DNA from: Cytophagales bacterium
Lineage (GTDB): Bacteria; Bacteroidota; Bacteroidia; Cytophagales; Cyclobacteriaceae
Direction: 5' to 3'
DNA: 64,000 nucleotides
Assembly (NCBI GenBank): GCA_020403045.1
Contig: JADBYK010000025.1
Span: 71,136 to 135,135 of the forward strand
The notes beneath the pieces are model-generated. The model searched no databases, had not been told where the DNA came from, and saw only the letters and a program-made list of their open reading frames with translations. The position numbers were made by a program, and so were the translations under genes. This document shows positions 36,446 to 53,996 of this stretch, in pieces (within the stretch, counting starts at the first letter, position 1; every line of letters starts with the position of its first letter).

Positions 36446-37650
36446 ATCGGCCACGGGTCAGCGAATTTATCTTTCGCCTTCCATGCAATCAGTTCATTTG
36501 TCGTAAGTAAACATTTCTGTAGTTCGTTTTTGATAATTTCCGGATTGAGCTCTGTTCCGATAATCACCAACTCGTTCATCCGGTCGCCAAACTCTTTATC
36601 CCATTTTTTCATTAGCTGTTCCTGGTTTTCCATAAAATCGGCTCTGGCTACACGCTGCGCCATGGACATAGACGCCCACCACTTGCCATACATCTCCGCT
36701 TTGGAAGAACCCCCGGCTTGACTCCAAAGAATGGCATCACTTGGCCTGGAGGCAAGCCAAAACATGCCTTTACTTCGAATCACATTCATAGGCCAATTCG
36801 TTTGTACAAAATCCCAAAAACGCTGTGGGTGAAAGGGTCTGCGATCTCGAAAAACAAAGGAGCTGATCCCATATTCCTCGGTTTCAGGAGTGTGTTCATT
36901 GTTTAACTCTTTTAACCAGCCTGCTGATTGTTGAGCCTTTTCAAAATCAAAAAGGCCAGTGTTTAAAATTTGTTTCAAGTCAATCTTCCCATGGTCGGCT
37001 TTGATAAGTTTTGCATCGGGATTGAGTTTTATCAAGATGCCCTCCAGCAACTTTAATTTTTCGGCTGGCACCAAATCTACTTTATTGAGCACGATCACAT
37101 TCGCAAACTCGATTTGATCGGTTAGTAGGTTGACGATACTCCGATCATCTTCCATTTCGCCCGTTAGTTTGCGGTCTTTCAATCGCTCTGCCGAACCAAA
37201 ATCATTGAAAAAATTAAACGCATCGACTACCGTCACCATGGTATCTAGCTGCGAGTATTTGGTGAGGTCGAGCAATTCATCACCTGAAGCAAAACTAAAT
37301 GTTTGTGCTACCGGCAATGGCTCCGATATACCTGTGCTTTCGATCAACAAGTAATCAAACTTCTTTTGCTTGGCGAGTTTTTCCACCTCAATCATCAAAT
37401 CTTCGCGCAGTGTGCAGCAGATACAGCCGTTGCTCATTTCCACCAACTTCTCCTCGGTGCGCGAGAGTTTGATTTCGTTTTTAACCAATTGAGCATCGAT
37501 ATTTACCTCGCTCATGTCGTTGACGATCACAGCTACGCGGAGTCCTTCTCGATTCGAGAGTATATGATTGAGCAACGTGGTCTTTCCTGCTCCCAAAAAT
37601 CCGCTTAGAACGGTAACAGGCAATTTCTTTGCCTTAAATGGATTTATCAT
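36442..37650 (-). CDS. COG0523/CobW family GTPase metallochaperone (ZigA/YciC-like)
   Basis: [33 protein letters not shown], and a CobW_C ELVIIG motif. Confidence 0.95.
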
Positions 37651-38026
37651 AACCAGTTTGTAGTTTTTTTAATCTTGTTTGAATGTCAGTCAGCTGTTGT
37701 CTCAGTTCCTGTTGTACCGACAGCATTTGATCAGGTGTTAGCTCTACTACTTTATGCGAATGAAAATGTTTGTGCTGGTGATGGGTTGACTCATTCACGG
37801 GGACATCTACCATTTCATTTTCCCATTTGGCTATCTCCCGTTCAATTTTTGCGATGGAATCTATGAGCGCTGGATTTTTCCTTAGTGATTGAATAGTTGC
37901 CTGAATATTATCTAAAACAGAAAACGATTCTTGCTGAATAGCCGCTGCCTTTTTTAGTAAGGCATTTTCTTTTTGTGAGCAGCTTAGAGCCAGCATCATG
38001 CCTGTTAGGAAAAGTACTGTCTTCAT
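37634..38026 (-). CDS. His-rich helical lipoprotein
   Basis: Lipobox ALSC and a [11 protein letters not shown] segment. Confidence 0.75.
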
Positions 38027-38454
38027 GGAGTAAGTATCTCAGCTTCATCTAAGATGAAATTCATGTGATTGACATCCGTTCCGTTAAGGCGTAATTTCCC
38101 TTTCACCGTAATGATCTGGTCGGCTTTTAATTTGGGTCGCTTCGTTTTAAAATTGATTTCGGCTACCGATTCAGGGCCAGCACCCCCACAAAAGAAACAA
38201 GAGGCATAGGGATTTTTTGAAAGTACAATGGCGTTGCCCTCTAAATCAAAAGGAATGTAGTGGCCCTTCAAACTAAACTCTTTTCCAATTTTTGCACGCA
38301 ACTCGGGCGTAAAGGACGGAACCAGAAAGTACTCGTTCATCTCTTTAAAAAAAGTGGAAGTGAACTTAACGCGGGCGAGTGTCATCCATCCATCTTCGGG
38401 ATCAGACGGAAAAAAGAAGTGAGCCGCAAAAACGATCGTGCTAATTAGCTTCAT
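38023..38454 (-). CDS. DUF3299-like protein
   Basis: W.TL..V, LKGHYIP, SCFFCGGAGP and an OB-like VKGKLRLN segment. Confidence 0.8.
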   Translation of the reverse strand: MKLISTIVFAAHFFFPSDPEDGWMTLARVKFTSTFFKEMNEYFLVPSFTPELRAKIGKEFSLKGHYIPFDLEGNAIVLSKNPYASCFFCGGAGPESVAEINFKTKRPKLKADQIITVKGKLRLNGTDVNHMNFILDEAEILTP

Positions 38455-38462
38455 AAAGTGGC

Positions 38463-38849
38463 TTATTGTTCGCGCGTCATTTTTTTATGAAGTTTCCAAT
38501 TCACCAGATGAGCAAGTGCGAGACACACGGCCCCCACTGAAGTGAAGAGTACTTCCCATAAGCTAGATAACTCAATTCTACCAATGATGATCAGGAACAC
38601 TCCCAATACAAAAATTAAAATGGGAGAAAGCCGGTGATGATGATTGATGTAAGACGGTAATAAAGAAGCAAGCGCGAGAAAAAAACTTATGCCTAACACG
38701 CCTCTCTCAATTGAACGGTCAGCCAGGAAATGGAGGCCTTGAAAGAACGATAAAGTGAGCAGCACTGGAACAAACGCACAATGCACGGCACACAGCAGTG
38801 AAGCGGAGAAACCTAACGCGTCTAAGTAATGGGTAAAAAAACTTTTCAT
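38463..38849 (-). CDS. MerC domain membrane protein
   Basis: LDALGFSASLLCAVHC...P and AHLVNW. Four TM segments. ATG 38849. Confidence 0.88.
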   Translation of the reverse strand: MKSFFTHYLDALGFSASLLCAVHCAFVPVLLTLSFFQGLHFLADRSIERGVLGISFFLALASLLPSYINHHHRLSPILIFVLGVFLIIIGRIELSSLWEVLFTSVGAVCLALAHLVNWKLHKKMTREQ

Positions 38850-38870: not shown

Positions 38871-38885
38871 TGCAACAATGTTGCA
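38871..38885. promoter_or_regulatory. Palindromic operator 1, TGCAACAATGTTGCA (putative Zur/Fur-family box)
   Basis: Perfect 7-1-7 inverted repeat overlapping the minus-strand -7 element TATATTTG (38884-38891). Confidence 0.8.
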
Positions 38886-38908
38886 AATATAGGCCAGGTC
38901 AGCTAATA

Positions 38909-38923
38909 TGCAACATTGTTGCA
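38909..38923. promoter_or_regulatory. Palindromic operator 2, TGCAACATTGTTGCA
   Basis: Perfect 7-1-7 inverted repeat containing the minus-strand -33 TTG (38911-38913), 19 nt from the -7. Lies 5 nt before ATG 38929. Confidence 0.8.
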
Positions 38924-38928
38924 TTAAT

Positions 38929-39576
38929 ATGTTATCACTATCATTTTTTGACATCAAAAAGCCAAAAGCATTGGCGGCACAATCGCTTGACGAATTATCA
39001 GGAATAGGTAAGCCTGATACCAACTTGGCCTACTATCAAAGGCCTGTAGATGAAGATATCCATCTTTTTGCTCAAACGCTTCTCGCCAAGGATTTTAGAG
39101 GATTTGACGCGGTGGTGAGTTCCCATTCAATAAAAGAGGTAGTTGCGAATGAATTAGATAAGGTGGCCGTTCACACGTCCGGTAAAATTGGGCTAGCTGA
39201 AGACATTGCCAACCTAACCCAGCTCTTTATTTCCATCACCCGACAAGAACACACACACCTGTATTTGAAACTTGTGAGTGACGATGCCTGCAGAAAATTC
39301 CACACCGATCGGTACGACTTACGACTGCTCTGCACCTACGTGGGGGCAGGCACAGAATGGATAGAAGACCGCTACGTGAATCGAAACAAGTTGGTGGGCG
39401 GAGACAACGAATCCATTGTCAAAGACGCGAGCAAAATAAAAACCATGCAGCCTTTTGAAGTAGGTATTTTAAAAGGTGAAGCATCGCTGCAAAATAAAGG
39501 AAAGGGCATAGTGCATCGCTCTCCACCTATCCAACACAAAAACGAAAAACGACTCTTGTTACGATTAGACTATTAA
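38929..39576 (+). CDS. DUF1826 domain protein (2OG-Fe(II) oxygenase-like fold)
   Basis: CRKFHTD...RLLCTYVGAGTEW and GIVHRSPP...RLLLRLD. Confidence 0.88.
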   Translation: MLSLSFFDIKKPKALAAQSLDELSGIGKPDTNLAYYQRPVDEDIHLFAQTLLAKDFRGFDAVVSSHSIKEVVANELDKVAVHTSGKIGLAEDIANLTQLFISITRQEHTHLYLKLVSDDACRKFHTDRYDLRLLCTYVGAGTEWIEDRYVNRNKLVGGDNESIVKDASKIKTMQPFEVGILKGEASLQNKGKGIVHRSPPIQHKNEKRLLLRLDY

Positions 39577-39590
39577 ACTCAATTATTGAT

Positions 39591-40289
39591 ATGCTAGAAG
39601 CAAAACAACTCAGCAAAAGCTACCAAGGTAAAGAAGCACTAAAACCCACCAGTTTTACCGTCAACAAAGGAGACATCTTTTGTCTGCTTGGCGCGAATGG
39701 CGCAGGCAAAACCACAACAATCAACCTCTTTCTCAATTTCATTCAACCATCCGGAGGTCAGGCATTGATTGGTGGAAAAGATGTGGTGAAAGAACCGCTC
39801 GAAACGAAGAAACTGCTTACCTACATTCCTGAAAACCTGATGCTCTATCCGAATTTGACGGGATTAGAGAACCTCGAATATTTCAGCGGGCTTGCCAACA
39901 AAAAATATCAGAAAGAAGAATTTCTGAAATTCTTAACGGAGGCCGGCCTGCAAGCCGAAGCACACGACAAGAGAATTTCTACGTACTCCAAAGGGATGCG
40001 GCAGAAAGTTGGCATTGCGCTGGCTTTGGCCAAAGATGCGCAAGTGCTACTGTTGGACGAACCTACTTCAGGATTAGACCCGAAAGCAAGCAACGAGTTT
40101 TCGGAATTGCTGACCAAACTGAGCAAGAAAGGAGTGGCTACGCTCATGGCTACCCATGATCTTTTCCGAGCCAAAGAAACGGGCACACACATTGGCATGA
40201 TGCGCGAAGGCAGTTTAGTAGAACAGCTTACCACGGATCAAATCAACCATACGGATTTAGAAAAATTGTATTTGAAACACATGAATTAA
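39591..40289 (+). CDS. ABC transporter ATP-binding protein
   Basis: Walker A GANGAGKTT, signature YSKGMRQK, Walker B LLLDEPTSGLD. Confidence 0.96.
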   Translation: MLEAKQLSKSYQGKEALKPTSFTVNKGDIFCLLGANGAGKTTTINLFLNFIQPSGGQALIGGKDVVKEPLETKKLLTYIPENLMLYPNLTGLENLEYFSGLANKKYQKEEFLKFLTEAGLQAEAHDKRISTYSKGMRQKVGIALALAKDAQVLLLDEPTSGLDPKASNEFSELLTKLSKKGVATLMATHDLFRAKETGTHIGMMREGSLVEQLTTDQINHTDLEKLYLKHMN

Positions 40290-40315
40290 AACATCAAAAA
40301 GCGATATCACCCAAA

Positions 40316-43021
40316 ATGAAGTTTGTCTTTGCAGTTTTAGTCCTCAATGTTTTTTTTGATTCGAATGGCCAATCGGTTAGCGCTATTTCAGCTAAAGTGA
40401 TGGATGCCAAAACCAAAATGCCCTTAGAAAACGTAACAGTGCAACTACTACCAGAAGAGATAGTGACCGTTACCGATGCAAATGGGCTTTTCCAATTCAA
40501 CAAGGTGGCAAACGCAAGTCATACAGTGGTCTTATCGATCATCGGATATACTACGGAAACGATTCTTGTAAAAGACAATTCGATGGGCAGTATCGAGTTG
40601 GAAGAACGAACAATAGCACTAGAAAATGTTACCATAACGGCTACCCCGGGTATGATAGGGTCTTCATCAACCATTGACAAAAGCGCTATTATTCATACAC
40701 AACCTACCAGTTTAGCAGATGTGCTGCAATTGATTCCCGGACAGTTGGCTTCTAATCCGAACTTGGGAGCGGCTCAGCAAATTAATCTTCGCCAAGTACC
40801 GACCACGGGAGATGCCGCAAAAGCCAATGCGCTTGGTACGCAAATCATATTGGACGGTGTGCCCTTTAGTAACAATGCTAATTTACAAACCGATGTTACT
40901 ATCCTGAACTCTAGCCCAGGTGCATTGCCTCCCTTTTCATCAGTAGCTGGGCGCGGGAATGACCTCAGGCAAATTCCTGCTGATAATATTGAAAGCATTG
41001 AAGTGGTTCGCGGTGTGCCCTCTGCTCGTTTTGGCGACCTGACATCCGGCATCGTCATTGTCAATTCAAGAATCGGAAGTTTTAAACCCGAGATACGGGT
41101 ACGAATGAACCCCAATTTGGAGCAGGCCAGTTTTTTCACCGGCTTTCATTCTGCCGGAAAAAGTAATACCTATAATATAAGCGCAGACGCGCTAAATGCC
41201 AGCGATGACATCAGAGATGGTTTCAACAAGTACACACGCGTGCAGGCTCAGATTAGTTGGCAGAAATTTTGGGACAAAGAAAAAAGATTCATCACCACCA
41301 CCATTGGGTCGTTTTATGTAAGTAATGACGGTCAGAACCAAAATCCTGCTGACACGCGCAATCAAATTAAGCGTTATGCTACGGATGATGGATTAAAATT
41401 TAGCACAGCGGGTAAGTGGAGAGCCAATAAAAAATGGCTGGCCTCATTGAACTACATTGCCTCCGTTACCCAAAGCAATCAGAAAGCATATTATCAATCA
41501 CTTGTTACCAGGGATTTGTTTCCGATTTCAACCGCACTGCGAGATACTACTCAAAAAGGTGTTTATGGAAAGAGCGAATACCTCAACAAAACCACCGTTG
41601 ATGGTATGCCTCTTAATGCTTATACACGATTGGAAGCGACCACGTCTGCGAAAGAAATACTCAACACACAGCACAAGCTGACAGTAGGAACAGAATGGAG
41701 ATATGATGTAAACAATGGAAATGGTCGGCAATTCGATTTGCTCACCCCACCACGTCAAAACTACAGTATGGGAGATCGGCCAATATCCTTTTCAAACATA
41801 CCTGGCATGCACCAGATAAGCTATTATCTGGAAGATAGAATGACCAGCGAGCTATACCGTAAACGATGGATTTTGCAAGCTGGAGTCAGAGTCGATAATG
41901 TTTCTCCCACTGGTATTTTAACGAGTAAATATGGGCTAGTCGTAGCTCCGCGCATCAACACTGCATTGGAAATCGCAAATGGAATTTCATTACGAGTAGG
42001 ATATGGAATAGCGGCAAAAGCGCCTCCTCTAAACTACTTGTACCCTGGCATTCGCTATTTTGATTTAGTCAATTTTAATTATTTCGCTACCAATCCTGCG
42101 GAACGTTTGGTCATTATCACCACTCGCACGATCAATCTGAATGACCAACCTTTAAAACCTTACCAATCAAAAAAGTACGAAGCAGGTTTTGACATTGAGA
42201 AAAAAAGAGGCAGTCTAAACGTTTCATTTTTTTCCGAAACGACTACAGGTGCCATCGGTATCAACCGCGAAGTAAAACCATTCGAATTTGCCAGACTGAT
42301 AGCCAGTAGCACCCCTCCCAATCAGCAACCAATAGTAGACCCCAACCCCGCAAGTATTGAAACTTTCTTTGCGGCCTATGATGTGCCGGTCAACAATCGG
42401 TTCATAGAAAATCAAGGTGTTGAATACAATGTTGACTTGCGCGAAATACCAGCTATCCGTACTTCTTTCAACATCACTGGTGCCTATATCCGAACAACTA
42501 GTTTTGACGATGGAGAATTTATAGATGCCCAAAAAGCTTATTTGAGCAACACGACTCCAATTCGAGTGGGTATTTATCAATCATCTTCAAAAGTTATCGC
42601 AGAACGTCTCAACACAAGCGTGCGATTTATCCACCGTATTCCTCAATTGAATATGGTCGTGTCTGCTTTGTGGCAAACAGTGTGGATTACAAAAAGTACT
42701 ACTGAGGCTCTGAATCCATTTCCTCTTGGATATATGAATAGAGCTGGCGAAAAAATCTATCTGAATGAGGAGGAGGCTAGGCAGATCGCTTATGGTGATT
42801 TGGTAAGAACCGTGAGCGATGCACGGCCCTTCAGTTTGCCTGCCCTGTACTTGTTTAACATACGATTAACCAAAGAATGGGCAAAAGGCTTTGGCTTTTC
42901 TTTTTTTGCTAACAACTTCATAAACGACCGTCCCTTGCATACGGATGTCAACACGGGTGGACTGGTTCGCAGAAATGAACCTTTGTTTTTTGGTGCCGAG
43001 TTTAATTTTTCAATAAGATAA
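40316..43021 (+). CDS. TonB-dependent receptor with N-terminal CarboxypepD_reg-like domain
   Basis: N-terminal GKV-like domain, plug DLRQIPADNIESIEVVRGVPSARFGDLTSG, C-terminal FFGAEFNFSI. Confidence 0.92.
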   Translation: MKFVFAVLVLNVFFDSNGQSVSAISAKVMDAKTKMPLENVTVQLLPEEIVTVTDANGLFQFNKVANASHTVVLSIIGYTTETILVKDNSMGSIELEERTIALENVTITATPGMIGSSSTIDKSAIIHTQPTSLADVLQLIPGQLASNPNLGAAQQINLRQVPTTGDAAKANALGTQIILDGVPFSNNANLQTDVTILNSSPGALPPFSSVAGRGNDLRQIPADNIESIEVVRGVPSARFGDLTSGIVIVNSRIGSFKPEIRVRMNPNLEQASFFTGFHSAGKSNTYNISADALNASDDIRDGFNKYTRVQAQISWQKFWDKEKRFITTTIGSFYVSNDGQNQNPADTRNQIKRYATDDGLKFSTAGKWRANKKWLASLNYIASVTQSNQKAYYQSLVTRDLFPISTALRDTTQKGVYGKSEYLNKTTVDGMPLNAYTRLEATTSAKEILNTQHKLTVGTEWRYDVNNGNGRQFDLLTPPRQNYSMGDRPISFSNIPGMHQISYYLEDRMTSELYRKRWILQAGVRVDNVSPTGILTSKYGLVVAPRINTALEIANGISLRVGYGIAAKAPPLNYLYPGIRYFDLVNFNYFATNPAERLVIITTRTINLNDQPLKPYQSKKYEAGFDIEKKRGSLNVSFFSETTTGAIGINREVKPFEFARLIASSTPPNQQPIVDPNPASIETFFAAYDVPVNNRFIENQGVEYNVDLREIPAIRTSFNITGAYIRTTSFDDGEFIDAQKAYLSNTTPIRVGIYQSSSKVIAERLNTSVRFIHRIPQLNMVVSALWQTVWITKSTTEALNPFPLGYMNRAGEKIYLNEEEARQIAYGDLVRTVSDARPFSLPALYLFNIRLTKEWAKGFGFSFFANNFINDRPLHTDVNTGGLVRRNEPLFFGAEFNFSIR

Positions 43022-43055
43022 AAAAGTAAAATAATAACCTAAATACAATTCTAAC

Positions 43056-44246
43056 ATGAAACAATCCCTCTTTTTCGTATTTGCTATAATAATGTCTTTT
43101 ACGGCTTGCCGTAAAGAAATTGATGAACTAAAAACATATGCCGTCACCGTTCAGGCGAAATATCCATCTACCTTTAGTAGCCAACTGGCTCTTGACGCAA
43201 CCGTAACACTTACCAATATAGCAGATGGAAGCATAAAAACAAGTACGACAAATGCTTCGGGCGATGCAGTTTTCAAAGATGTATTGCCCGGAACCTATAG
43301 TATTGCCGCCAACAAAAGTCTTTCGGCTGCTGACGCTCTTTCCCTTACAGGAATAAGCAATAGCGTCCAATTGAATGGTGCTAAAAACGATGTTCTCATT
43401 TCCCAAGCCGAAACCTTCCAGTTACAACTTCAAGGCAGCGCCATTGGTGGGTTAGTCATTAAAGAGGTGTACTATACAGCCAGCAAAACACCAAGTGGTG
43501 GTAACTACTTTAGCGACCAGTTTGTAGAAATTTATAACAATGCCACAGATACGTTATACCTAGACAGCCTCTGCATTGCCGATATACATGGTAATTCAGG
43601 TTTGATAAATCCGACCTCACTACCAACTCCTTTTAATACTGACAATGGCAATGTGTACGCAAACAGTATCTGGCAAATTCCAGGCACAGGCAAACAATAT
43701 CCATTGGCACCAGGCCAGAGTATTGTCATTGCGCAAGATGGTGTGAACCACAAAGACGCATCGCTAAACCCAAGTAGCCCCGTTGACTTATCAGCGGCCA
43801 ATTGGGAGACCTACAACGAACGCCCAGATGGGCGAGATGCTGATGCTCCACAAGTACCGAATTTAAGAAGGGTATATTTCACTGGAGGATTTGATTGGTT
43901 GCTCACCGTGTTTGGGCCGGGCGTTATTATTTACAAAGCCGACTTTACTAAGCTGGAGCAGGTAGCTATCCCAGGTGCCAGTTCTACTACACCCCCGCGG
44001 ATCAAAGTACCCAATGGCGTTATTATTGACGGCTTTGAGGCATTGAGAGATGGAAATAGTGCAAGCTTCAAGCGAGTGACAACGGCAGTGGATGCCGGTT
44101 TTGTGTTTGCCGATAACACCTACAACATGCAAAGTTTTAGACGCAAGGTTACTACAATTATCAATGGAAGGCGTGTGTTGCAAGACACCAACAATAGCAC
44201 TAATGATTTTGAAAAAATAGCGTCACCTACGCCAAAAGGATTTTAA
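43056..44246 (+). CDS. Surface lipoprotein, DUF4876-like
   Basis: Lipobox FTAC followed by KEIDE. LVIKEVYY, DQFVEIYNN..DTLYLD, and LQDTNNSTNDF. Confidence 0.8.
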   Translation: MKQSLFFVFAIIMSFTACRKEIDELKTYAVTVQAKYPSTFSSQLALDATVTLTNIADGSIKTSTTNASGDAVFKDVLPGTYSIAANKSLSAADALSLTGISNSVQLNGAKNDVLISQAETFQLQLQGSAIGGLVIKEVYYTASKTPSGGNYFSDQFVEIYNNATDTLYLDSLCIADIHGNSGLINPTSLPTPFNTDNGNVYANSIWQIPGTGKQYPLAPGQSIVIAQDGVNHKDASLNPSSPVDLSAANWETYNERPDGRDADAPQVPNLRRVYFTGGFDWLLTVFGPGVIIYKADFTKLEQVAIPGASSTTPPRIKVPNGVIIDGFEALRDGNSASFKRVTTAVDAGFVFADNTYNMQSFRRKVTTIINGRRVLQDTNNSTNDFEKIASPTPKGF

Positions 44247-44317
44247 AAAATCTTGAAAGCAGCCTTTCTTTTGTCAAAGCGCGTCAACGATTGGAAATGG
44301 TAAAGTTTAAAAACATC

Positions 44318-45784
44318 ATGCGTAATTTGTTAATCATGGACTGCCTATTGCTGACAGTCTTTGCCGGTAGAGCTCAGCAAATGGGCATTGACAGTTTGCA
44401 AGTGTTGCAAGATGGAAGAGCTTTAAATGCGTTTACTGCTACCGGCAACATGGTGTTTGCTGGCGACTTGTTACCCAACATTGGCTATGGAGCCGCCACA
44501 GCAAGCCGCCAAGTAGGTGGATTTCGTCAACCAATGACTGCCGCTGAGAAAATTGATCTATCGCTGGCAACAACAGGTTTCAAAAAAGTCAAGCAGTTGG
44601 GGTACTATGGGGACTTATCGTATAAAAAGTCAGATGATAGTAATTTGCCCTGGAGCGGTGTATACAATGCAGCAGACGACAACCCCGCAATATGGGCTGA
44701 TAGCAGCCGTGGCAATTGGAAGCGAGACGAGATAGAAGTAACCTTTGGAATTAGCGCACCAGAGTTAATCAAAAAACTTTCTGTAGGCATGCAGATACAC
44801 TATGCGATCGGTTCGGGAGCGCGAACATCTGACCCCAAACCATTCTATCGATACAGAAATATAGTGCTGATGCCCGGCATAACGTACCAATTGCCCAAGA
44901 ATCAATTGATAGGAATAACAGCAACTATTGGCTTTGCTAAAGAAGAAAATGAACTCGGTTTCTTTAGCGATAATAATGACAATGTGTTGCTATACCGCAT
45001 CAGGGGCTACGGTACCTTCAGTAGAACCCCCTTTGTAAGTGGCGAACGAAAAAGAATTCAATCAGACCTTGGCGCTAATGTCCACCACCAAAAAAAATGG
45101 AAAGACTACAAGTTGTTGGTTGCAGCCCACGTCAGGCAGCGAAGCGATGAAGTCATTGAGGGCGTTGCCAGTCCGGTGGTCACCAATTACTTTTCGGGTA
45201 TTGAGTTAGGCAGTTCTATTGACTTATTTAAAGGAAATCCGACTGCCGGAAGATCTGCGTCATTAAAAGTAACTTCTAAAAATGGCTACACCGATGATGT
45301 CATCTTCCAAGCTGAAAGTGCTTCCTCCATCCAGCAACGTGTACTGTTGAAAGTAAGCAACTGGTTTACTCGCAACAAAAGCATCTGGCAGTTTTCGGTG
45401 ACACCCATTTTTACCTTTATCGACAATACTGACTATGCCACCGTAACACAATTTACAGCCAGCAACCTTATTGCTGTTGGCAACGCATCCTTTCGACATA
45501 AAATAGGTAGTGGAATGCAGTTGTATGTCAGCATAGAGGGAGGAGCGAGCCGCTTATTAGAAGCCTATTTTATCAACCAGCGCCCCAATGTGATTACGGA
45601 GCAATTGGTTCGTCCTAATTACCTTTTTCACACAACTAATTATGTGTTGGCTAACGCGCAGGTAGGGGTTGTTATTCAAAGTAACAATAGGCTTGGGCAT
45701 ACGGTGTCAATAAGCTCGGTCAATAAATTGGCGGCCAATGTTTCGAGATCAAATCTTCAGTTTAACTATTCTATTATTTTTTGA
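44318..45784 (+). CDS. Outer-membrane beta-barrel, DUF6850-like
   Basis: Signal peptide, many amphipathic strands, DPKP, C-terminal FNYSIIF. Follows the DUF4876-like gene. Confidence 0.7.
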   Translation: MRNLLIMDCLLLTVFAGRAQQMGIDSLQVLQDGRALNAFTATGNMVFAGDLLPNIGYGAATASRQVGGFRQPMTAAEKIDLSLATTGFKKVKQLGYYGDLSYKKSDDSNLPWSGVYNAADDNPAIWADSSRGNWKRDEIEVTFGISAPELIKKLSVGMQIHYAIGSGARTSDPKPFYRYRNIVLMPGITYQLPKNQLIGITATIGFAKEENELGFFSDNNDNVLLYRIRGYGTFSRTPFVSGERKRIQSDLGANVHHQKKWKDYKLLVAAHVRQRSDEVIEGVASPVVTNYFSGIELGSSIDLFKGNPTAGRSASLKVTSKNGYTDDVIFQAESASSIQQRVLLKVSNWFTRNKSIWQFSVTPIFTFIDNTDYATVTQFTASNLIAVGNASFRHKIGSGMQLYVSIEGGASRLLEAYFINQRPNVITEQLVRPNYLFHTTNYVLANAQVGVVIQSNNRLGHTVSISSVNKLAANVSRSNLQFNYSIIF

Positions 45785-45830
45785 TGAAAAATCGAATGCT
45801 TTTGATGAACCTAAAAACAAACAGCTACGA

Positions 45831-46664
45831 ATGAAAAGGTATTTATGTACGGGCATTATAGCGATTGGGCTGCTTAGTTGTGGTTTAAACAAGTCATTGA
45901 CCAAGCAATTGGCAAACGAACCATTCCAACAAGCGTTGGCTGATACACTATTGGCGTATGCACTAGACCATGAAGCATTGTACACGTTAGCAGATACACT
46001 AAAGCCTGTGAGCAGTGTCAAATTTCTGCGCTATTCCATTGCCAAAGATTCTACGCAACACGATGGGGACATCACCATTGCCACCCGGGATTCTTTATTG
46101 AAAAAAATAAGAGACTATCAACAGGTATGCCATATGCTTAGCGAAGGCGATTGGCAGTTTGTTCTGACGCCATTTAACAGAACAGAAAAGAACATCAGAA
46201 ACATGGAGATCTATGTGGTACGAAAGTCTGTCTTTGCCAAAAAGATACGGCAGCATCAACACTTCTTTGGGCAGTGGGGCTTTACGCCAAATGCCAGTCC
46301 CGCAGTGGTCTTATCCGTAATTGAATATGAAACAAAGTTAGACAGGAACAGAGCCTTCGGCTATCTCTTCGGCTACCCACCACATGCGGTCGATTTTTTT
46401 GTGGAGGCTGCCAAAGTACAAAATGCCGATACGTCTAAACCATTGGTGAAAAGAGACTTCTTTTCAATCCCTGTGTTTGCAAAAGCCACCGGGTATTTTA
46501 CTTACGCGGTGCCAAAAGGTTATAAAGCCACCCCGGTGGATAGCACCATTTATAAAGCCGCAACTCAAACGCTGCAACGATACAAAGTGGCCCGAGCAAA
46601 ATTTAGCCAAACTAAGAATGTAGATGCCCTTAAACTTTGGAGGTATTTAATTGATAAAAACTAA
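45831..46664 (+). CDS. Hypothetical lipoprotein
   Basis: Lipobox LLSC and a FGYLFGYPPHAVDFF motif. ATG 45831. Confidence 0.7.
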   Translation: MKRYLCTGIIAIGLLSCGLNKSLTKQLANEPFQQALADTLLAYALDHEALYTLADTLKPVSSVKFLRYSIAKDSTQHDGDITIATRDSLLKKIRDYQQVCHMLSEGDWQFVLTPFNRTEKNIRNMEIYVVRKSVFAKKIRQHQHFFGQWGFTPNASPAVVLSVIEYETKLDRNRAFGYLFGYPPHAVDFFVEAAKVQNADTSKPLVKRDFFSIPVFAKATGYFTYAVPKGYKATPVDSTIYKAATQTLQRYKVARAKFSQTKNVDALKLWRYLIDKN

Positions 46665-46755
46665 AAATGAATTTAAAAGTCAACTATAGCATCATCATTC
46701 AAGCAAATAAAAAAAGCTAATCTTAAATAACCCAATTATAAACAAATACAACTTT

Positions 46756-48171
46756 ATGACCCTAAAAATCGCACTCAAAGAGCTCAAAGAAATCGTTCGG
46801 GAGGGACGCTTTCGAATTACGGCCATCACCCTTTTTGCTTTGTTGCTGGCCGCCTTGTTTGTGAGCAAAAGCTATTACACATCGGTCAATGCCCAGCACA
46901 GCGAAGCCAAAAAAAATGCACGCAGCGAGTGGGTGGAACAGGGACAAAAAAATCCGCACTCGGCAGCGCACTATGGCACATACGCATTCAAACCAAAGTA
47001 TCCGCTTTCGTTGATTGACAATGGTGTGGATAAGTACACGGGCGTAAGCATTTACCTGGAAGCACATAAACGCAACGAAGCTCAATATGCGGCTGCACAA
47101 GATCAAACCGCCCTGTCGCGTTTTGGTGATCTCACGCCTGATTTTGTTCTGATCTTTATCGTTCCCCTTTTCATCATTCTGATCGGGTTCAATGCCTTTA
47201 CGCGCGAACGTGAAAGCGGCACGCTACGATTATTGAAAAGTCAGGGTGTGAGCACGTGGAAATTAACGATGGGAAAATGGTTGGGCATATTTCTTCCCGT
47301 TTTGTTCATTGTGATTCCCGTGTATGTGCTGGCCGCTTTATTTTTAGCCAACATCAAAGATTACGGACAGTTTAGTTTGTGGGCGCTCACCCTCCTGTTT
47401 GGCGTTTACCTGATCTATTATGCAGTGTTCATCAATATCACGCTGTTTGTTTCCTCTCGTTTTAAAAAATCAAACTTAGCGTTCGTGACATTGCTGGGAA
47501 TTTGGATGGTATCGTGTTTAGCGATGCCCAAGATTTCAACTGCCATTGCGGATAAACTGTACCCTTATCCCACGCAAGTGGAATTTGAAGAACAGGTAGC
47601 GGCTGACAAAAAGAAAGGATTGGATGGACACAATCCGTGGAATACCGAAGCGAAGAAACTGGAAGAAGAAACGTTAAAAAAATATGGAGTCGACAGCGTG
47701 CAGCAATTGCCCTTCAACTGGGATGGCTTTTTGATGCAGGAAGGCGAGAAGCATACTGCTGATATTTATTTCAAGCATTATCAATTGTTGAAAGACACGT
47801 ATGTGAATCAGACCAACGTGTATCGCAGCACGGCTGCGCTTTCTCCTTTTCTGCCCACGCGCTTTTTGTCGATGGCCATTTGCCGCACCGATTACACCTC
47901 GCATTGGGACTTTGCCACCGCAGCTGAAAATTACCGTATTGAATTGGTGGGGAAAATGAATGGTGATATGGCAGCCAATTCAAAATATGGCGATTGGGAT
48001 TATCTGGCCGATGATAAACTGTGGTCTTCGGTGCCTGATTTTCAATATGAACCGGCTTCATACACCACTGTGATCCGTCAGAACACGAGCAATCTCATCA
48101 CCTTATTAGCATGGCTGTTGCTCTCCTTTGCCGCATTGTACGGAGCGGTCACTCAAATGAAAACCATCTAG
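46756..48171 (+). CDS. ABC-2-type permease with DUF3526-like domain
   Basis: NPHSAAHYG, RERESGTLRLL..QG, multiple TMs and SPF. Confidence 0.85.
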   Translation: MTLKIALKELKEIVREGRFRITAITLFALLLAALFVSKSYYTSVNAQHSEAKKNARSEWVEQGQKNPHSAAHYGTYAFKPKYPLSLIDNGVDKYTGVSIYLEAHKRNEAQYAAAQDQTALSRFGDLTPDFVLIFIVPLFIILIGFNAFTRERESGTLRLLKSQGVSTWKLTMGKWLGIFLPVLFIVIPVYVLAALFLANIKDYGQFSLWALTLLFGVYLIYYAVFINITLFVSSRFKKSNLAFVTLLGIWMVSCLAMPKISTAIADKLYPYPTQVEFEEQVAADKKKGLDGHNPWNTEAKKLEEETLKKYGVDSVQQLPFNWDGFLMQEGEKHTADIYFKHYQLLKDTYVNQTNVYRSTAALSPFLPTRFLSMAICRTDYTSHWDFATAAENYRIELVGKMNGDMAANSKYGDWDYLADDKLWSSVPDFQYEPASYTTVIRQNTSNLITLLAWLLLSFAALYGAVTQMKTI

Positions 48172-48232
48172 TCACATCACGGGCGTCAAGACACCTTTAT
48201 ATCGTTAAATCAAAATCATAAACCATAACCTT

Positions 48233-49672
48233 ATGTTAAACCATACTATCAAATACGAATGGCTCAACTTGCTACGCGACAGGTGGGTGATGATTCTGCT
48301 GATTTTATTTTTGGGCATCACCGTGTTTGCGGTGCGCAATGGAAAGGAAAAAGTGGAGGATCGTATGGCCACTATTACCAAAGAAAAAGAAAAAATGGCG
48401 AAGCTAGATCGGAGGATGGCTGCTGAAATAGACTCGCTGCACAAAAATCTGAAACCGGCACCCGCGGCAAGGCAAGATTCACGTGCACTGGATAAAATTG
48501 GGTGGAATGCCCCACGTGTTGTCGCCATGGATGCTCAACCGCTGGCGGTTGTTTCTACTGGCCAAAGCGACTTATTTACGCACTATTCAAAACCAAAAAT
48601 TTATGGCGAGGCCTACACACTTGGCTTCTCGGAACTCTCAAACCCCGTTCAACTTTTGTTTGGCAGTTTTGATCTTGCCTTCGTTTGCATCTACCTGCTT
48701 CCCCTACTGGTGTTGGGCTTTAGTTACAACATACTTTCGTCCGAGAAAGAATCGGGTGTGTTGCGCTTGACGTTGGCACAGCCTATATCCTTGTACCAAT
48801 GGTTATTTGGAAAGTTGCTTCTCCGCTTTTTTATTCTCACTGTCATTGTTGTTGCCTCTATTCTTTTTTCGTTAACAATTTTTGACATTGATTGGATGGG
48901 CAACATGGGAGCAGCGATGAAATTAATTCTGCTCGTCACCGTGTATATCTTTTTTTGGTTCTTGATTTCATTTTTAATAAACCTGTTGGGGAACTCATCC
49001 GGCAGCAATGCGGTCACATTGATAGCGGTGTGGGTTGTGTTTGTGCTTTTGATCCCGTCTATTATTTCGCAAACGGCAAACTCCTTTTATCCCGTGCCAT
49101 CGCGCACCATTATGATTCATGAATATCGGGAGGCAAAAGCATTGGCGGAGAAAAAGGCGGATGAAATACTGAAAACGTATTACCGGGAGCATCCGGAATA
49201 TGCTCCGAAAGATACTACTCAGCAAAACCAGTATAGTTGGTGGCTGGGAAACTTTGCCGCCAGCGATGTCATCAACCAATCAGTACAACCTGTGTTGGAT
49301 GATTATAATGAAGCACTGAATAAACAACAAAGCTGGGTCAATCGACTTCGCTATTTGTCGCCCGCTATTTTGTTGCAAGACGGGTTGAATGATCTGGCGG
49401 GAACTTCTCCAGCGCATTACACCGACTTTCGGAATCAGGTGATTGCATTTGCCAATACGTGGCGCCACTATTTTACTCCACGGATGTTTAATAATGAAAA
49501 GATGCGGGCAGAAGACTTTGGTTCCTTGCCAACGCACAGCTATTCTTCGGCTCAAGTGCCTTCGCACTACAATGCAGATTTGATGGGGCTTCTTTTCTTT
49601 TTAGGATTGGCGTTAGCAGGAAGTCTCTGGGCTTATCGAAGAAATAGTTTTGAGCGGATAGTATCCATGTAG
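48233..49672 (+). CDS. ABC-2-type permease with DUF3526-like domain (second subunit)
   Basis: FGSFDLAFV.IYLLPL, SEKESGVLRL and YLSPAILLQ..LNDLAGT. Confidence 0.85.
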   Translation: MLNHTIKYEWLNLLRDRWVMILLILFLGITVFAVRNGKEKVEDRMATITKEKEKMAKLDRRMAAEIDSLHKNLKPAPAARQDSRALDKIGWNAPRVVAMDAQPLAVVSTGQSDLFTHYSKPKIYGEAYTLGFSELSNPVQLLFGSFDLAFVCIYLLPLLVLGFSYNILSSEKESGVLRLTLAQPISLYQWLFGKLLLRFFILTVIVVASILFSLTIFDIDWMGNMGAAMKLILLVTVYIFFWFLISFLINLLGNSSGSNAVTLIAVWVVFVLLIPSIISQTANSFYPVPSRTIMIHEYREAKALAEKKADEILKTYYREHPEYAPKDTTQQNQYSWWLGNFAASDVINQSVQPVLDDYNEALNKQQSWVNRLRYLSPAILLQDGLNDLAGTSPAHYTDFRNQVIAFANTWRHYFTPRMFNNEKMRAEDFGSLPTHSYSSAQVPSHYNADLMGLLFFLGLALAGSLWAYRRNSFERIVSM

Positions 49673-49674
49673 AA

Positions 49675-49926
49675 ATGAAACTTTACGATGTCATTACCAC
49701 CAAAAAAAAAGCGGCATACATAGGTTTGTATTTGGTGGTATTTTCATTTGTGGGATTCACGCAGTCGCAAGACGAAGCCACCATTTTTACTCCCATCCAG
49801 CCGCCAAAAGAAATAAAGCTTTACAAAGTCAGCGGAGCCATTAATTCAGGTGTCGTCAATTCAAGGATGTCTTGGGAGTATGAAACGGTTTCATTTGTGT
49901 ATAACGATACAGCAAGATGCCTTTAA
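49675..49926 (+). pseudogene. Short ORF, probably the 5' remnant of a longer secreted protein
   Basis: Signal-like N-terminus (...FVGFTQSQ) followed by only ~50 residues. Starts 2 nt after the permease stop. Confidence 0.4.
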
Positions 49927-50028
49927 CACCACCACTTTACTTACCGATCGGCTGCGCACATAAAGTGGCATTTTCAAAATCACCTTTATGAAACAGTTTT
50001 AATCAAGTCCAACTTATCCAGCTATATT

Positions 50029-50043
50029 CGCAACTCTGTTGCA
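50029..50043. promoter_or_regulatory. Operator 3, CGCAACTCTGTTGCA (imperfect copy)
   Basis: GCAAC-N3-GTTGC core intact. Overlaps TATATTCG (-7-like, 50023-50030) and ends 2 nt before ATG 50046. Confidence 0.7.
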
Positions 50044-50045
50044 AG

Positions 50046-52448
50046 ATGAACTACACGTTTACCTTACTTTTACTTTTTAGACTGTCAATGTCCTTTGGCC
50101 AATCGTGTGACTTTACACTTTCAGGCAAGGTCTCTGATGAGATGGGGAACCCATTAGTTGGAGCAACAATTTTGCTAGCGAAGCAAAATAGAGGAGAGGT
50201 AGCAGACGAAAATGGATTCTTCGAATTCAATAAACTTTGCAGCGGGAAATATCAAATTGAAGTCAGGTTTGTTGGTTTCAAAACGATTTCAAGTAGCGTT
50301 AAACTTTCTGCCAACAAAGTTTGGAATGTAACATTGCAAAGTGATAGCACCGCGCTGAATGAAGTAGTCATTTCAGAAAAGCACGTTGAGTTGGCAGCTA
50401 CCTCCACCTATAGTTCGCTTTCTGGAAAAGCACTCGAAGAAACATTAGGCAAATCATTGGGGGAATCGCTGCGCGAAATTCCGGGAGTCAATACCATTCA
50501 AACAGGCCCTGCTATTTTCAAACCAGTGATTCATGGCGTGCATAGCCAACGGGTGTTAATCTTAAACAACGGCATCCGCCAAGAAGGACAAAACTGGGGC
50601 GCGGAGCATGCACCCGAAGTCGATCAGTTTATTGCATCGAACATCATCGTAATTAAAGATGCTGCGGCCATCAAGTATGGAGCTGATGCGTTGGGTGGAG
50701 TGGTGCTGGTGAACCCCGCTAAGGTACCGACCCAAGCCGGGCTGGGTGGACAAGTACATGTAATCGGTGCGACTAACAATGGATCGGGTGTACTTTCTGG
50801 ATATTTGGAAGGTGGGCTGAAAAAGTTGCCGGGATTTGGTTGGCGCGCTCAAGGCACAATCAAAAAGGCAGGCGACTCACGCACAGCCAACTATGTGTTA
50901 TCCAACACAGGTTTTGAAGAACAGAATTTTTCTATTGCCACGGCTTATCACTCCGAAAAAAAAGGAGTCGATATTTTCTATAGCCACTTCAACACTTCAA
51001 TTGGAATTTTGCGAGGCACGGCCGTGGAGACTGCAGAAGACCTGGCTAATGCAATCGAGCGAGAACCGCCTCAGTACACGTCTCCATTCACGTATGACAT
51101 TAAGCAACCTCGCCAATCGGTACAACATGATTTGCTTAAGGTAAATGCGCATTTAGCAGAAGGTAAAAATGAATTCCGTTTGCAATATGGATTTCAAAAC
51201 AACAGGCGTAGAGAATTTGATTTTCGATTAGGTGCTGCCTTGTCCGACATACCCGCGCTCGGGTTTCAGTTACAAACGCACACACTCGATGCCGATTGGG
51301 AGCGCTCACATTCTACAAAGTTTCAAAGTTGCTGGGGTGTGAACATCCTCTATCAAAGCAACAGTAAGATCGATGGCACTCAAACAATTCCTTTCATCCC
51401 TAATTTTGATCACTATACAGCTGGTGTTTTTGCTGTTGAAAAATTGACACTAAATGACTGGGTGGTAGAGCTTGGTCTTCGCTATGACTTCAAAAAGTAT
51501 GATGTGATCGGTTTTAATTTTCAGAATAGACTCTATCGATCAAACATCGACTTTCAGAACTTTAGCGGTACTTTTTCGACAAAACGAAAGCTCGGAAATT
51601 TTTCTTCATTAACTACCTCAATAAGCAATGCATGGAGGCCTCCCAATATGGCAGAGCTGTATAGCCTGGGAACGCACCAAAGTGCGGCAGCGATTGAGTA
51701 TGGATTATTGTTGGACGAAAAAACATCGGAAGTAAAAGAATATACTGCTACTGGTGCAAGAGTAGAAAAAGCCTTTAAGGGGGTAGTCGGTTACAAAATT
51801 GAAAAGCAGAAATTCACCACAGAGTTAACAGGTTACGTCAACTACATTTTCGATTTTATTTACCTGCGTCCGCGTGGAGTAACCGAAGGTCTGCGAGGAA
51901 TTTTCCCGTATTTCCGATACACTCAAACAGATGCTTCTTTTATTGGTTTCGATCTGTTCTCAGTATATCAACTCAATCGACAGCTGACACTTACTGGGAA
52001 GGCCTCACTACTACGAGCCACCGATGAGACTCAAAACGATTTCCTGATCTTCATTCCATCCAATCGAGCCGATATAGGTTTGCGTTACGACTCAAAGCCA
52101 ATAAAAAAATTCAGTTGGAATGCCGAAATAAAGATTCGCTGGGTGGGCATGCAAAACCGCGCGCCACAAGTAATTACACCCCGCGAAATTATTGAAGCTC
52201 AAAAACAAGGCATCGATATAATTGCGCAGCGACCGGACAATTTTGATTTTGCCCCTGCCCCGGATAGTTATTTCTTATCATCACTTGGACTAGGCGCCAC
52301 ATGGAAACTCGAAAAATCGAAGTGGGATATTCGCCTCTCCTGCGATAACCTGACCAACGAAGCCTACCGCGAATACACCAACCGCTTAAGGTATTTTGCC
52401 GATGATGTAGGCCAAAATATCACATTAGGCATTCATTTTAGCTTTTAG
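50046..52448 (+). CDS. TonB-dependent receptor, probably for zinc or another metal
   Basis: Plug KPVIHGVHSQR...WGAEHAPEVD, loop LGTHQSAA, and C-terminal RYFADDVGQNITLGIHFSF. Confidence 0.92.
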   Translation: MNYTFTLLLLFRLSMSFGQSCDFTLSGKVSDEMGNPLVGATILLAKQNRGEVADENGFFEFNKLCSGKYQIEVRFVGFKTISSSVKLSANKVWNVTLQSDSTALNEVVISEKHVELAATSTYSSLSGKALEETLGKSLGESLREIPGVNTIQTGPAIFKPVIHGVHSQRVLILNNGIRQEGQNWGAEHAPEVDQFIASNIIVIKDAAAIKYGADALGGVVLVNPAKVPTQAGLGGQVHVIGATNNGSGVLSGYLEGGLKKLPGFGWRAQGTIKKAGDSRTANYVLSNTGFEEQNFSIATAYHSEKKGVDIFYSHFNTSIGILRGTAVETAEDLANAIEREPPQYTSPFTYDIKQPRQSVQHDLLKVNAHLAEGKNEFRLQYGFQNNRRREFDFRLGAALSDIPALGFQLQTHTLDADWERSHSTKFQSCWGVNILYQSNSKIDGTQTIPFIPNFDHYTAGVFAVEKLTLNDWVVELGLRYDFKKYDVIGFNFQNRLYRSNIDFQNFSGTFSTKRKLGNFSSLTTSISNAWRPPNMAELYSLGTHQSAAAIEYGLLLDEKTSEVKEYTATGARVEKAFKGVVGYKIEKQKFTTELTGYVNYIFDFIYLRPRGVTEGLRGIFPYFRYTQTDASFIGFDLFSVYQLNRQLTLTGKASLLRATDETQNDFLIFIPSNRADIGLRYDSKPIKKFSWNAEIKIRWVGMQNRAPQVITPREIIEAQKQGIDIIAQRPDNFDFAPAPDSYFLSSLGLGATWKLEKSKWDIRLSCDNLTNEAYREYTNRLRYFADDVGQNITLGIHFSF

Positions 52449-52450
52449 GT

Positions 52451-52493
52451 TTGATTATTCATCAGAAGTAGCTATAATTGCAACATTGTTGCA
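52451..52493 (+). promoter_or_regulatory. Promoter TTG-N19-TATAATTG overlapped by operator 4, TGCAACATTGTTGCA (52479-52493)
   Basis: TTG at 52451-52453, -7 at 52473-52480, then a perfect palindrome. Confidence 0.8.
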
Positions 52494-52507: not shown

Positions 52508-53110
52508 ATGAAAACCTTTCGATTTATTTGTTTGCTATTGGTAGCCGGCTCGCTTTTGTTTTTGGCTGGCTGTAAAAAAGATGACCCGAAACCTGAGAAT
52601 ATACCAGAAGCGATAACCAAGGCTACTCTGACTTTTACGCCAGCAGGCGGTGCAGCTGTAATAGTAACAGCCACAGACCCAGATGGAGATGGTCCACTGC
52701 CACGTACGTTAAGCGGCCCCATCAACTTGGTGAAAAATGTTTCCTACACGCTCAAGATCACATTGATCAATGAATTGGCCAAGCCAACAGATCCTGAATA
52801 TGATATTACTGAAGAAGTTGAAGAGGAAGCAGATGAGCATATGTTCTTTTTTGCCTGGACCAACAATACGTTTTCTAATCCAACAGGAAATGGAAACATT
52901 GATGGCCGAGGTGACCCGGTAAACTATATCGACAGCGATGCTAAGGGATTGCCTTTAGGTTTGGAGACCAGTTGGACGACCATCAACACTGCTGGAAACG
53001 GTACTTTCCGAGTGATTTTAAAACACCAACCTGATTTAAAATCAGCTACCACTACTTCTAATGACGGAGAAAGTGATTTGGATGTGACTTTCAATTTATC
53101 TGTGAATTAA
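52508..53110 (+). CDS. Surface lipoprotein of the family often annotated 'type 1 periplasmic binding fold superfamily'
   Basis: Lipobox LAGC followed by KKDD. EEADEHMFFF, DS..LPLGL and LKHQP. ATG 52508. Confidence 0.8.
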   Translation: MKTFRFICLLLVAGSLLFLAGCKKDDPKPENIPEAITKATLTFTPAGGAAVIVTATDPDGDGPLPRTLSGPINLVKNVSYTLKITLINELAKPTDPEYDITEEVEEEADEHMFFFAWTNNTFSNPTGNGNIDGRGDPVNYIDSDAKGLPLGLETSWTTINTAGNGTFRVILKHQPDLKSATTTSNDGESDLDVTFNLSVN

Positions 53111-53113
53111 ACC

Positions 53114-53230
53114 CAAACTATGCATTAGGAATGCATAGTTTGCCCAGGGGGTTGACGATCCGCCTGAGGCGGATGTCAAGGTTAAACCTCGTGACGCTTG
53201 CGGTCAGAGTCAGACATTTATCTTCTGACC
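53114..53230. repeat. Cluster of three hairpins (REP/MITE-like)
   Basis: CAAACTATGCAT/ATGCATAGTTTG; TTGAC-ATCCGCC/GGCGGAT-GTCAA; GGTCAGA/TCTGACC. Confidence 0.6.
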
Positions 53231-53688: not shown

Positions 53689-53701
53689 GCAATTTGATGC
53701 T

Positions 53702-53988: not shown

Positions 53989-53996
53989 ATCTATCC

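Follow-up and report, generated by a model that had tools for sequence, protein, structure and literature searches.

A TGCAAC-N3-GTTGCA palindrome is the likely operator of a Zur-type zinc-starvation regulon in a Cytophagales bacterium

A 64-kb stretch of the genome of an uncultured freshwater Cytophagales bacterium (assembly GCA_020403045.1, contig JADBYK010000025.1, positions 71,136 to 135,135; the whole stretch is called the window here) carries four copies of a 15-bp palindrome in front of genes with an apparent role in metal metabolism, among them the gene for a GTPase of the COG0523 family. This arrangement raises the question of what the palindrome does, which protein recognizes it and to which metal that protein responds. 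Fur-family regulators bind 7-1-7 inverted repeats, and COG0523 genes are often controlled by Zur. The initial annotation of the window took the palindrome for the box of Zur, or of a related Fur-family regulator, in Bacteroidota. Comparative genomics supports this assignment, and we consider it likely that the four palindromes are the operators of a Zur-type zinc-starvation regulon that is bound by a divergent Fur-family repressor. The comparisons described below show the sites, their significance, conservation and position and their linkage to a Fur-family clade; that a protein binds them, represses transcription and responds to zinc is what we infer.

Three exact matches to the 7-1-7 form (TGCAACAnTGTTGCA / TGCAACANTGTTGCA) are present in the window and correspond to operators O1, O2 and O4 of Table 1, whereas 100 dinucleotide-preserving shuffles of the window contained none. 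The fourth copy, O3, deviates from the 7-1-7 form at two positions and has a perfect GCAAC-N3-GTTGC core. The C at its first position is a common variant that is found in 20 of 95 sites from related loci (see below). When the window was scored with a position weight matrix (PWM) trained on the sites of other genomes, the window itself being excluded, O4, O2, O1 and O3 reached 30.4, 30.0, 29.4 and 18.5 bits, respectively. The next-best score in the window was 8.9 and thus below the maximum of 14.2 seen across 20 shuffled windows, so that the four copies are indeed the only ones, as the annotation had stated.

The sites keep a fixed register to predicted promoters. A sigma-A promoter of Bacteroidota combines a TAnnTTTG box at -7, close to the transcription start, with a TTTG at -33, about 19 bp farther 5'. 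At three of the four, the first two bases of the palindrome are the last two bases of a -7 element (Table 1), a geometry that suits a repressor. O1 and O2 share a divergent intergenic region, in which their centres are 38 bp apart. O1 overlaps the -7 box of the minus-strand promoter of the merC-like/COG0523 operon and at the same time coincides with the -33 region of the promoter that drives DUF1826 on the plus strand. O2 ends 6 nt 5' of the DUF1826 start codon; it is accompanied by a weak -7 candidate (TAATATGC) and falls on the -33 position of the minus-strand promoter, to which its 3' half contributes the TTG. The overlap of every copy with a -7 or -33 element, which had been proposed from first inspection, was therefore recovered, with three sites on -7 elements and O2 in the position just described. 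A scan for sigma-70 promoters gave 35 matches in the window where 34.6 were expected and is uninformative for Bacteroidota.

To follow the palindrome through other organisms, species-representative genomes were scanned with the DUF1826 protein of the window, which yielded 62 loci (numbered with the prefix L). Sixteen are from Bacteroidota and all of these belong to Cytophagales or to unclassified Bacteroidota, with Cyclobacteriaceae, Flammeovirgaceae, Chryseolinea, Ohtaekwangia and Roseivirgaceae represented and a best DUF1826 identity of 72%. The GCAAC-N3-GTTGC core was found in 14 of the 16 loci at the heads of operons for COG0523, DUF1826, ABC or TonB-receptor proteins, and this position is kept despite rearranged gene order (L008, L010-L014). 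The distance between the counterparts of O1 and O2 is always 38 bp in L001-L006. A count over 763 kb of Bacteroidota-type loci gave 133 sites with one mismatch or none, where about 1.7 were expected, and 126 of them lie within -130 to +300 of the 5' end of an open reading frame (ORF). They collapse to 95 non-redundant contexts, in which the half-sites carry 1.3-2.0 bits per position while the three central bases vary. The symmetry of the 7-1-7 form proposed at the outset is real, but the constrained core is narrower, TGCAAC-N3-GTTGCA (6-3-6), and positions 7 and 9 merely prefer A and T. The proposed taxonomic scope has to be narrowed as well: what is documented here is its occurrence in Cytophagales and in unlabelled metagenome contigs of Bacteroidota type, rather than in the phylum as a whole. 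Of 46 pairs of adjacent sites, 41 have a spacing of exactly 38 bp, and a TAnnTTTG box at offset -6 accompanies 59 of 94 non-redundant sites, being perfect in 34. In L009 and L063 the palindrome lies between the -33 and -7 elements instead.

Arms that do not vary around a centre that does, in constant register with a promoter element, are the signature of a dimeric DNA-binding protein and do not fit an RNA hairpin. We examined the latter explanation, according to which the palindromes act as terminators or attenuators in RNA or belong to a repetitive extragenic element, and regard it as extremely improbable. A loose consensus scan for terminators does list 38885-38871 as a 6-bp hairpin with a T-rich tail. 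However, 6 bp is all that the stem comprises, the sites are located 5' of genes and in divergent promoter regions rather than at 3' ends, and their offset to the promoter elements is fixed. The half-sites are nearly invariant and the loop varies, without compensatory changes, and no Rfam family matches.

If a protein binds the palindrome, which one is it? No Fur-family ORF was detected in the six-frame translation of the window, either with phmmer and E. coli Fur as the query or with a profile hidden Markov model (HMM) of the Fur-like clade introduced below, in line with the original remark that the window lacks a cognate regulator. As a detector, phmmer with E. coli Fur was abandoned, as it found Zur genes in proteobacterial loci only and missed the divergent clade of Bacteroidota. 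This clade was recognized by eye in L009 (Flammeovirgaceae) and then confirmed with Pfam, where a 144-aa protein matches FUR (PF01475) with 30.1 bits against a gathering cutoff of 23.1. The gene is part of a motif-headed operon that encodes an ABC ATPase, a MacB/FtsX permease, the 144-aa Fur-like protein, a homologue of the 143-aa protein of the window, a MerC-like protein and DUF1826. A homologue search with the L009 protein gave six proteins, too few to define a family, and led to L063-L065. On the 33-kb contig L063, a Fur-family homologue with 58% identity to the L009 protein is encoded behind a perfect motif in the order 140-aa ORF, ABC, FtsX, ZIP-family transporter, Fur-family gene and 149-aa ORF, followed in the same operon by a TonB-dependent receptor (TBDR), DUF4876, DUF6850, a 303-aa ORF and COG0523. 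Judged by its gene content, L063 is the window's module joined in one operon with the predicted regulator and a classical zinc importer. In L001, the closest DUF1826 match, the clade HMM found a 128-aa member directly after COG0523.

A further set of 69 metagenome loci was gathered by homology to the Fur-like protein family alone. Wherever the Fur-like gene stands alone, one or two copies of the motif lie directly upstream; this applies to seven of seven non-redundant clusters and to all 46 stand-alone loci with enough upstream DNA. The upstream pair typically consists of TGCAACAATGTTGCA and CGCAACAATGTTGCA, 38 bp apart, and is divergent from a COG0523 operon. In L066-L069 the Fur-like gene is internal and comes after COG0523 or another gene of the cluster; in L067-L069 it also lies before DUF1826. 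The motif is absent from distant Fur paralogues, which have 26-28% identity. A Fur-family gene linked to the box, as expected for a Zur box, is accordingly present in related genomes, namely in L001, L009, L063 and the stand-alone clusters. Co-localisation, apparent autoregulation and the negative control provided by the paralogues are the usual grounds on which comparative genomics assigns a regulator to its sites, and we regard this Fur-family clade as the candidate cognate regulator.

In L071 and about 40 similar metagenome loci, the COG0523 operon that diverges from the apparently autoregulated Fur-like gene differs from that of the window; it encodes a DsrE-like 125-aa protein, a MerC-like protein, a C92 (YaeF/YiiX) amidase and then COG0523 (e.g. 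L071:6736-9552). Plasmid-borne relatives of the Fur-like protein were found by tblastn in Bacteroidota only. They were rejected as an extension of the regulon, as those inspected are motif-less paralogues near czc/P-type ATPase efflux genes or near TBDR-DUF4625 genes. The plasmids of Pontibacter (L135) and Flavobacterium (L137) carry paralogues of about 32-34% identity inside CzcA/P-type ATPase heavy-metal efflux clusters, and on a Parabacteroides plasmid (L136) the paralogue is divergent from a TBDR gene with two DUF4625 genes. None of L135-L137 has a TGCAAC box, and P. distasonis has merely the degenerate AGCAACAATGTTTCA.

A different candidate lies within the window itself. Immediately 3' of the regulon, at 53997-54587, there is a gene for a Crp/Fnr-family regulator, whose product might bind the palindrome in place of a Fur-family protein. 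The gene is syntenic 3' of the lipoprotein gene in L001, L002, L004 and L006, and L013, which is more distant, has a homologue in the vicinity of DUF1826. Four of these five loci, however, are close relatives that share overall gene order, Crp-like genes are near merely 2 of the 69 metagenome loci, and the Crp/Fnr gene of the window has no motif in front, whereas the Fur-like gene carries it in every independent stand-alone cluster. Crp/Fnr sites are even-length, either 5-6-5 (TGTGA-N6-TCACA) or 5-4-5 (TTGAT-N4-ATCAA). The 15-bp, odd-length 6-3-6 palindrome is unlike these and does not conform to a Crp/Fnr site, and we consider recognition by this protein very improbable.

Several lines of evidence point to zinc as the metal sensed by the proposed Fur-family repressor. 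The COG0523 GTPase of the window is of the ZigA type, scoring 578.8 bits on the NCBIfam ZigA model (under its cutoff of 600) and 159.5 on the CobW model, and the motif-headed operon of L063 includes a ZIP transporter. DUF1826 genes occur in predicted proteobacterial Zur regulons (PMC2770081), and one was identified by RNA-Seq in a Zur study of Francisella novicida (PMC5786701). In addition, the annotation had suggested a search for the motif in front of zinc-free ribosomal protein paralogues, and such a case was found in L017 (Sandaracinaceae, Myxococcota), where TTGCAACCGTGTTGCG lies between DUF1826 and a gene for a 53-aa L33 protein without cysteine (PF00471, 67 bits), with COG0523 nearby.

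The same operator and the same kind of repressor could nevertheless respond to iron, manganese, cobalt or nickel and form a Fur-, Mur- or Nur-like regulon. COG0523 includes cobalt- and iron-linked subfamilies, and the window protein also matches CobW and other models, although the ZigA score exceeds the CobW score more than threefold. The ZIP transporter of L063, the Cys-less L33 paralogue that adjoins the motif in L017 and the DUF1826 gene of the Francisella study (PMC5786701) speak against another metal, as does an identical box predicted before the Desulfovibrio znuABC-zur operon (PMC545781). On balance we judge a metal other than zinc to be unlikely.

Some observations weigh against a Zur-type regulon in this organism, and two of them favour another metal. 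In Bacteroides and Porphyromonas, iron limitation induces TBDR-DUF4876 clusters, which in B. thetaiotaomicron and P. gingivalis are among the genes with the strongest response (PMC10434189). The profile of the Fur-like clade matches Fur, PerR and Zur proteins of solved structure along its entire length, both CxxC motifs included, and its best match in the PDB is a Fur and not a Zur; sequence alone cannot place the clade in Zur as against Fur/PerR. The loci that document autoregulation were chosen for the Fur-like gene, many are nearly identical and their taxonomy is unlabelled. The presence of the regulator in the source genome is a prediction, its gene being expected outside the window. Two of the 16 Bacteroidota loci, L015 and L016 (both Cytophagales), are without the motif. 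Finally, the sequencing runs that contain the window sequence are freshwater DNA metagenomes, three runs whose type is not recorded and a sparse metatranscriptome that contributes one contig of 186 nt, so that no transcription starts could be mapped. As a separate observation, the divergent promoter region of L016 (3360-3560) contains other palindromes, AACGCAAATATATTGCGTT and AACGCAACAAAACTGCGTT, together with the degenerate TGCCATACAGTTGCA; operator and regulator may both have diverged in this locus.

In the mechanism that we propose for the Zur-type regulon, a zinc-loaded homodimer of the divergent Fur-family repressor, encoded outside the window, would bind each TGCAAC-N3-GTTGCA. The bound repressor would shut out RNA polymerase because the palindrome shares bases of the -7 element and extends over the position where transcription is expected to start. 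Between the divergent operons, O1 and O2 would each block one promoter at its -7 element and the opposite one at its -33 region. Upon zinc scarcity, loss of the regulatory metal would release the repressor from the DNA, and four units would be derepressed: the merC-like/143-aa/His-rich lipoprotein/ZigA-like operon, the DUF1826/ABC/TBDR/DUF4876/DUF6850/ABC-2 operon, the receptor gene TBDR_B and the lipoprotein gene behind it. Together, the four units could plausibly carry zinc over both membranes, with the ZigA-like chaperone delivering it.

How does the palindrome relate to known Zur boxes? The gammaproteobacterial Zur box is GAAATGTTATAWTATAACATTTC. In alphaproteobacterial DUF1826 loci, several of which have a canonical zur gene adjacent, we found the recurrent palindromes TGTTAT-N3-ATAACA (L018, L033, L034 and L050), TGTAAT-N3-ATTACA and TGATAT-N3-ATATCA. 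They share the 6-3-6 (7-1-7) architecture with the Cytophagales box and agree with it at half-site positions 1 (T), 2 (G) and 5 (A), and proteobacterial Zur likewise has COG0523 and DUF1826 targets and is often encoded next to them. At the remaining three positions of the half-site TGTTAT and TGCAAC diverge, the Cytophagales core containing G+C, and the regulator clade is too divergent to be detected by phmmer with E. coli Fur. The early statement that the box is unlike the AT-rich boxes of Proteobacteria and Bacillus is hence correct for the letters, but not for the 6-3-6 design, which is shared, nor for the three of six positions in common with the TGTTAT box. Moreover, hybrid boxes precede COG0523 in the alphaproteobacterial loci L040 and L043, namely TGCAAT-AAT-GTTGCA and TGCAAC-AAT-ATTGCA (AATGCAATAATGTTGCATT at L040:7985 and AATGCAACAATATTGCATT at L043:8397), that of L040 lying between zur and COG0523; by their letters they are intermediate between the TGTTAT and TGCAAC types. 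The Cys-less L33 gene in Sandaracinaceae and these hybrids beside canonical zur indicate that the G+C-containing variant of the Zur box reaches beyond Cytophagales and Desulfovibrio.

Similar regulon members are known from the Zur-ZigA system of Acinetobacter baumannii and from the Zur regulon of Pseudomonas aeruginosa, which comprises COG0523, the MacB-type ABC transporter PA4063-4066 and TonB receptors. ZigA-type COG0523 proteins, DUF1826 neighbours and TBDRs recur in Cytophagales, and a MacB/FtsX-type ABC transporter resembling that of P. aeruginosa is present in the relatives L009, L012, L016 and L063, whereas operator sequence and regulator clade are different. The Zur box of Bacillus subtilis is TCGTAAT-N-ATTACGA. 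Fur-family boxes of Bacillus resemble the palindrome in having one dimer per 15-bp 7-1-7 repeat, in overlapping the core promoter and in mediating metal-bound repression, as proposed here, but they differ in the half-site sequence and in that the promoter elements here are the -33/-7 of Bacteroidota instead of -35/-10. In the work of Rodionov et al. (2004, Genome Biol 5:R90, PMC545781) the Bacillus box is given as TAAATCGTAATNATTACGATTTA.

The closest counterpart comes from that same study, in which ATGCAACnnnGTTGCAT was predicted as the Zur box of D. vulgaris and D. desulfuricans (PMC545781). It lies upstream of znuABC-zur, and the regulator, ZUR_D, is a divergent Fur-family protein (PMC545781). 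Consensus and 6-3-6 palindrome are identical to those of the Cytophagales box, the predicted regulator is encoded within the regulated operon (in Cytophagales, in the relatives of the window), and the predicted function is zinc uptake. The two systems differ in phylum and in extent: Desulfovibrio has a single znuABC-zur operon, while here COG0523, DUF1826, TonB receptors and ABC-2 permeases are combined and no ZnuABC was seen. Both boxes are computational predictions, and our literature search found no experimental work on the Desulfovibrio Zur (DVU1340).

Neither the box, in view of this prediction from 2004 for Desulfovibrio (PMC545781), nor the type of regulon is new, and a Fur-family repressor that occludes a promoter is a textbook mechanism. 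A full-text literature search, in which 'zur' is a noisy term and which did not cover RegPrecise, returned no description of a Zur box or of the regulation of zinc homeostasis in Bacteroidota. It is a serious possibility, although we would stop short of expecting it, that the motif and the Fur-like clade mark an undescribed Zur regulon of Cytophagales, and possibly of Bacteroidota more widely, in which members of unknown function form a zinc route that replaces ZnuABC. If so, this would be a new route from the outer membrane to the cytoplasm, made up of a TonB receptor with a DUF4876 lid and DUF6850, ABC-2/DUF3526 permeases, the MerC-like inner-membrane protein, the 143-aa protein and the His-rich lipoprotein. 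We know of no described role in zinc uptake for the DUF4876 lid, DUF6850, MerC-like or ABC-2/DUF3526 proteins. What the analysis provides is a model of the operator (TGCAAC-N3-GTTGCA, frequently in pairs with 38-bp spacing) and a clade that probably includes its regulator. It also provides candidates for zinc uptake in environmental Bacteroidota, namely genes whose function is unknown and which are predicted to be co-regulated (DUF1826, DUF4876, DUF6850, DUF3526 permeases, MerC-like and others). The prediction for Desulfovibrio, which is 20 years old and likewise computational, gains independent support.

The sites are followed by metal-related genes (Table 1), as first proposed: they encode a COG0523/ZigA-like protein, DUF1826, two TBDRs, ABC transporters and a MerC-like protein. 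The gene set of operon 1 also follows the motif in L001-L006, L010 and L011. Operon 2 has the order DUF1826, ABC ATPase, TBDR_A, DUF4876, DUF6850, 308-aa protein, two ABC-2/DUF3526 permeases and 83-aa protein, and the set of DUF1826, ABC and permease genes is found behind the motif in L001-L008. DUF4876 proteins have been proposed to be lids of TonB transporters (bioRxiv 10.1101/2023.03.17.533168), and that of operon 2 is a putative lid lipoprotein. When TBDR_B was compared with the sequences of the PDB, a SusC homologue came first, followed by the zinc receptor ZnuD (E 4e-10, plug region). In related loci the lipoprotein gene always comes next after TBDR_B and has its own copy of the motif, and its 200-aa product is probably a surface partner of this receptor. 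No significant match in Pfam or NCBIfam was obtained for the 143-aa, 130-aa, 308-aa and 83-aa proteins or for the 200-aa lipoprotein, and the 143-aa protein had no match in the PDB either; a suspected likeness to DUF3299/PA4066 was not confirmed.

Table 1. Operators, -7 elements and transcription units of the proposed regulon in the window
Feature	Sequence	Position	Strand	Remarks
Operator O1	TGCAACAATGTTGCA	38871..38885		Exact match; syntenic copies in L001-L006
Operator O2	TGCAACATTGTTGCA	38909..38923		Exact match; kept in L001-L006
Operator O3	CGCAACTCTGTTGCA	50029..50043		2 nt before TBDR_B start codon; kept in L001, L002, L004, L006
Operator O4	TGCAACATTGTTGCA	52479..52493		In 59-nt TBDR_B/lipoprotein gap; kept in L001, L002, L004, L006, L100, L115
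-7 element	TATATTTG	38884..38891	-	merC-like/COG0523 operon; perfect match to Bacteroidota TAnnTTTG
-7 element	TATATTCG	50023..50030	+	TBDR_B; read from sequence
-7 element	TATAATTG	52473..52480	+	Lipoprotein gene; TTTG 19 nt upstream at 52450-52453
Operon 1		36442..38849	-	MerC-like membrane protein, 143-aa protein, His-rich lipoprotein, COG0523 GTPase of ZigA type
MerC-like membrane protein		38463-38849	-	Pfam MerC
143-aa protein		38023-38454	-	Operon 1
His-rich 130-aa lipoprotein		37634-38026	-	Operon 1
COG0523 GTPase, ZigA type		36442-37650	-	Pfam cobW + CobW_C
Operon 2		38929..49926	+	Pfam; short same-strand gaps between genes
TonB-dependent receptor TBDR_B		50046..52448	+	Pfam Plug, barrel, CarboxypepD_reg
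200-aa lipoprotein (lipobox LAGC)		52508..53110	+	ORF and sequence

Some of these genes have a history of their own. In the window, a four-gene module of TBDR_A, DUF4876, DUF6850 and the 308-aa protein (40316-46664) separates the ABC ATPase gene from those of its permeases. In the closest relatives (L001, L002, L005 and L006) the ATPase is directly followed by the permeases, without the module at that position. In L063 the TBDR_A-DUF4876-DUF6850 module comes after the Fur-family gene, so that these genes seem to be relocated together. The DUF1826 protein of the window (38929-39576) has 67-70% identity to its counterparts in L001, L002 and L003, and the flanking genes of L002 reach 90-99%, which suggests that DUF1826 alone is fast-diverging or has been replaced. 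MerC-like domains are fused to DUF1826 in L012 (7893-9002) and to a pyridine-nucleotide-disulphide oxidoreductase in L016 (3451-4947), and in L106 a separate oxidoreductase of this type is encoded next after COG0523. These arrangements hint at a functional link between MerC-like proteins, DUF1826, the oxidoreductase and COG0523.

The stretch downstream of the lipoprotein gene has features of a different kind. Just past the stop codon (53108-53110), contig depth at 53112-53300 was 120-540x in three metagenome runs, compared with 2-8x for the flanking genes. Many contigs join this segment from differing left contexts at 53105-53112, and one variant swaps 70 nt. The segment, which gave no tRNA or Rfam match, looks like a high-copy, hairpin-rich repeat element (e.g. 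53114-53142). Further on, at 53449-53990, an ORF of 79 aa is followed by short, apparently interrupted ORFs (MHVVWTDEALADYHQNIDF...) that recall RelE/ParE-type toxins when read by eye, and this region may be a decayed toxin-antitoxin pair.

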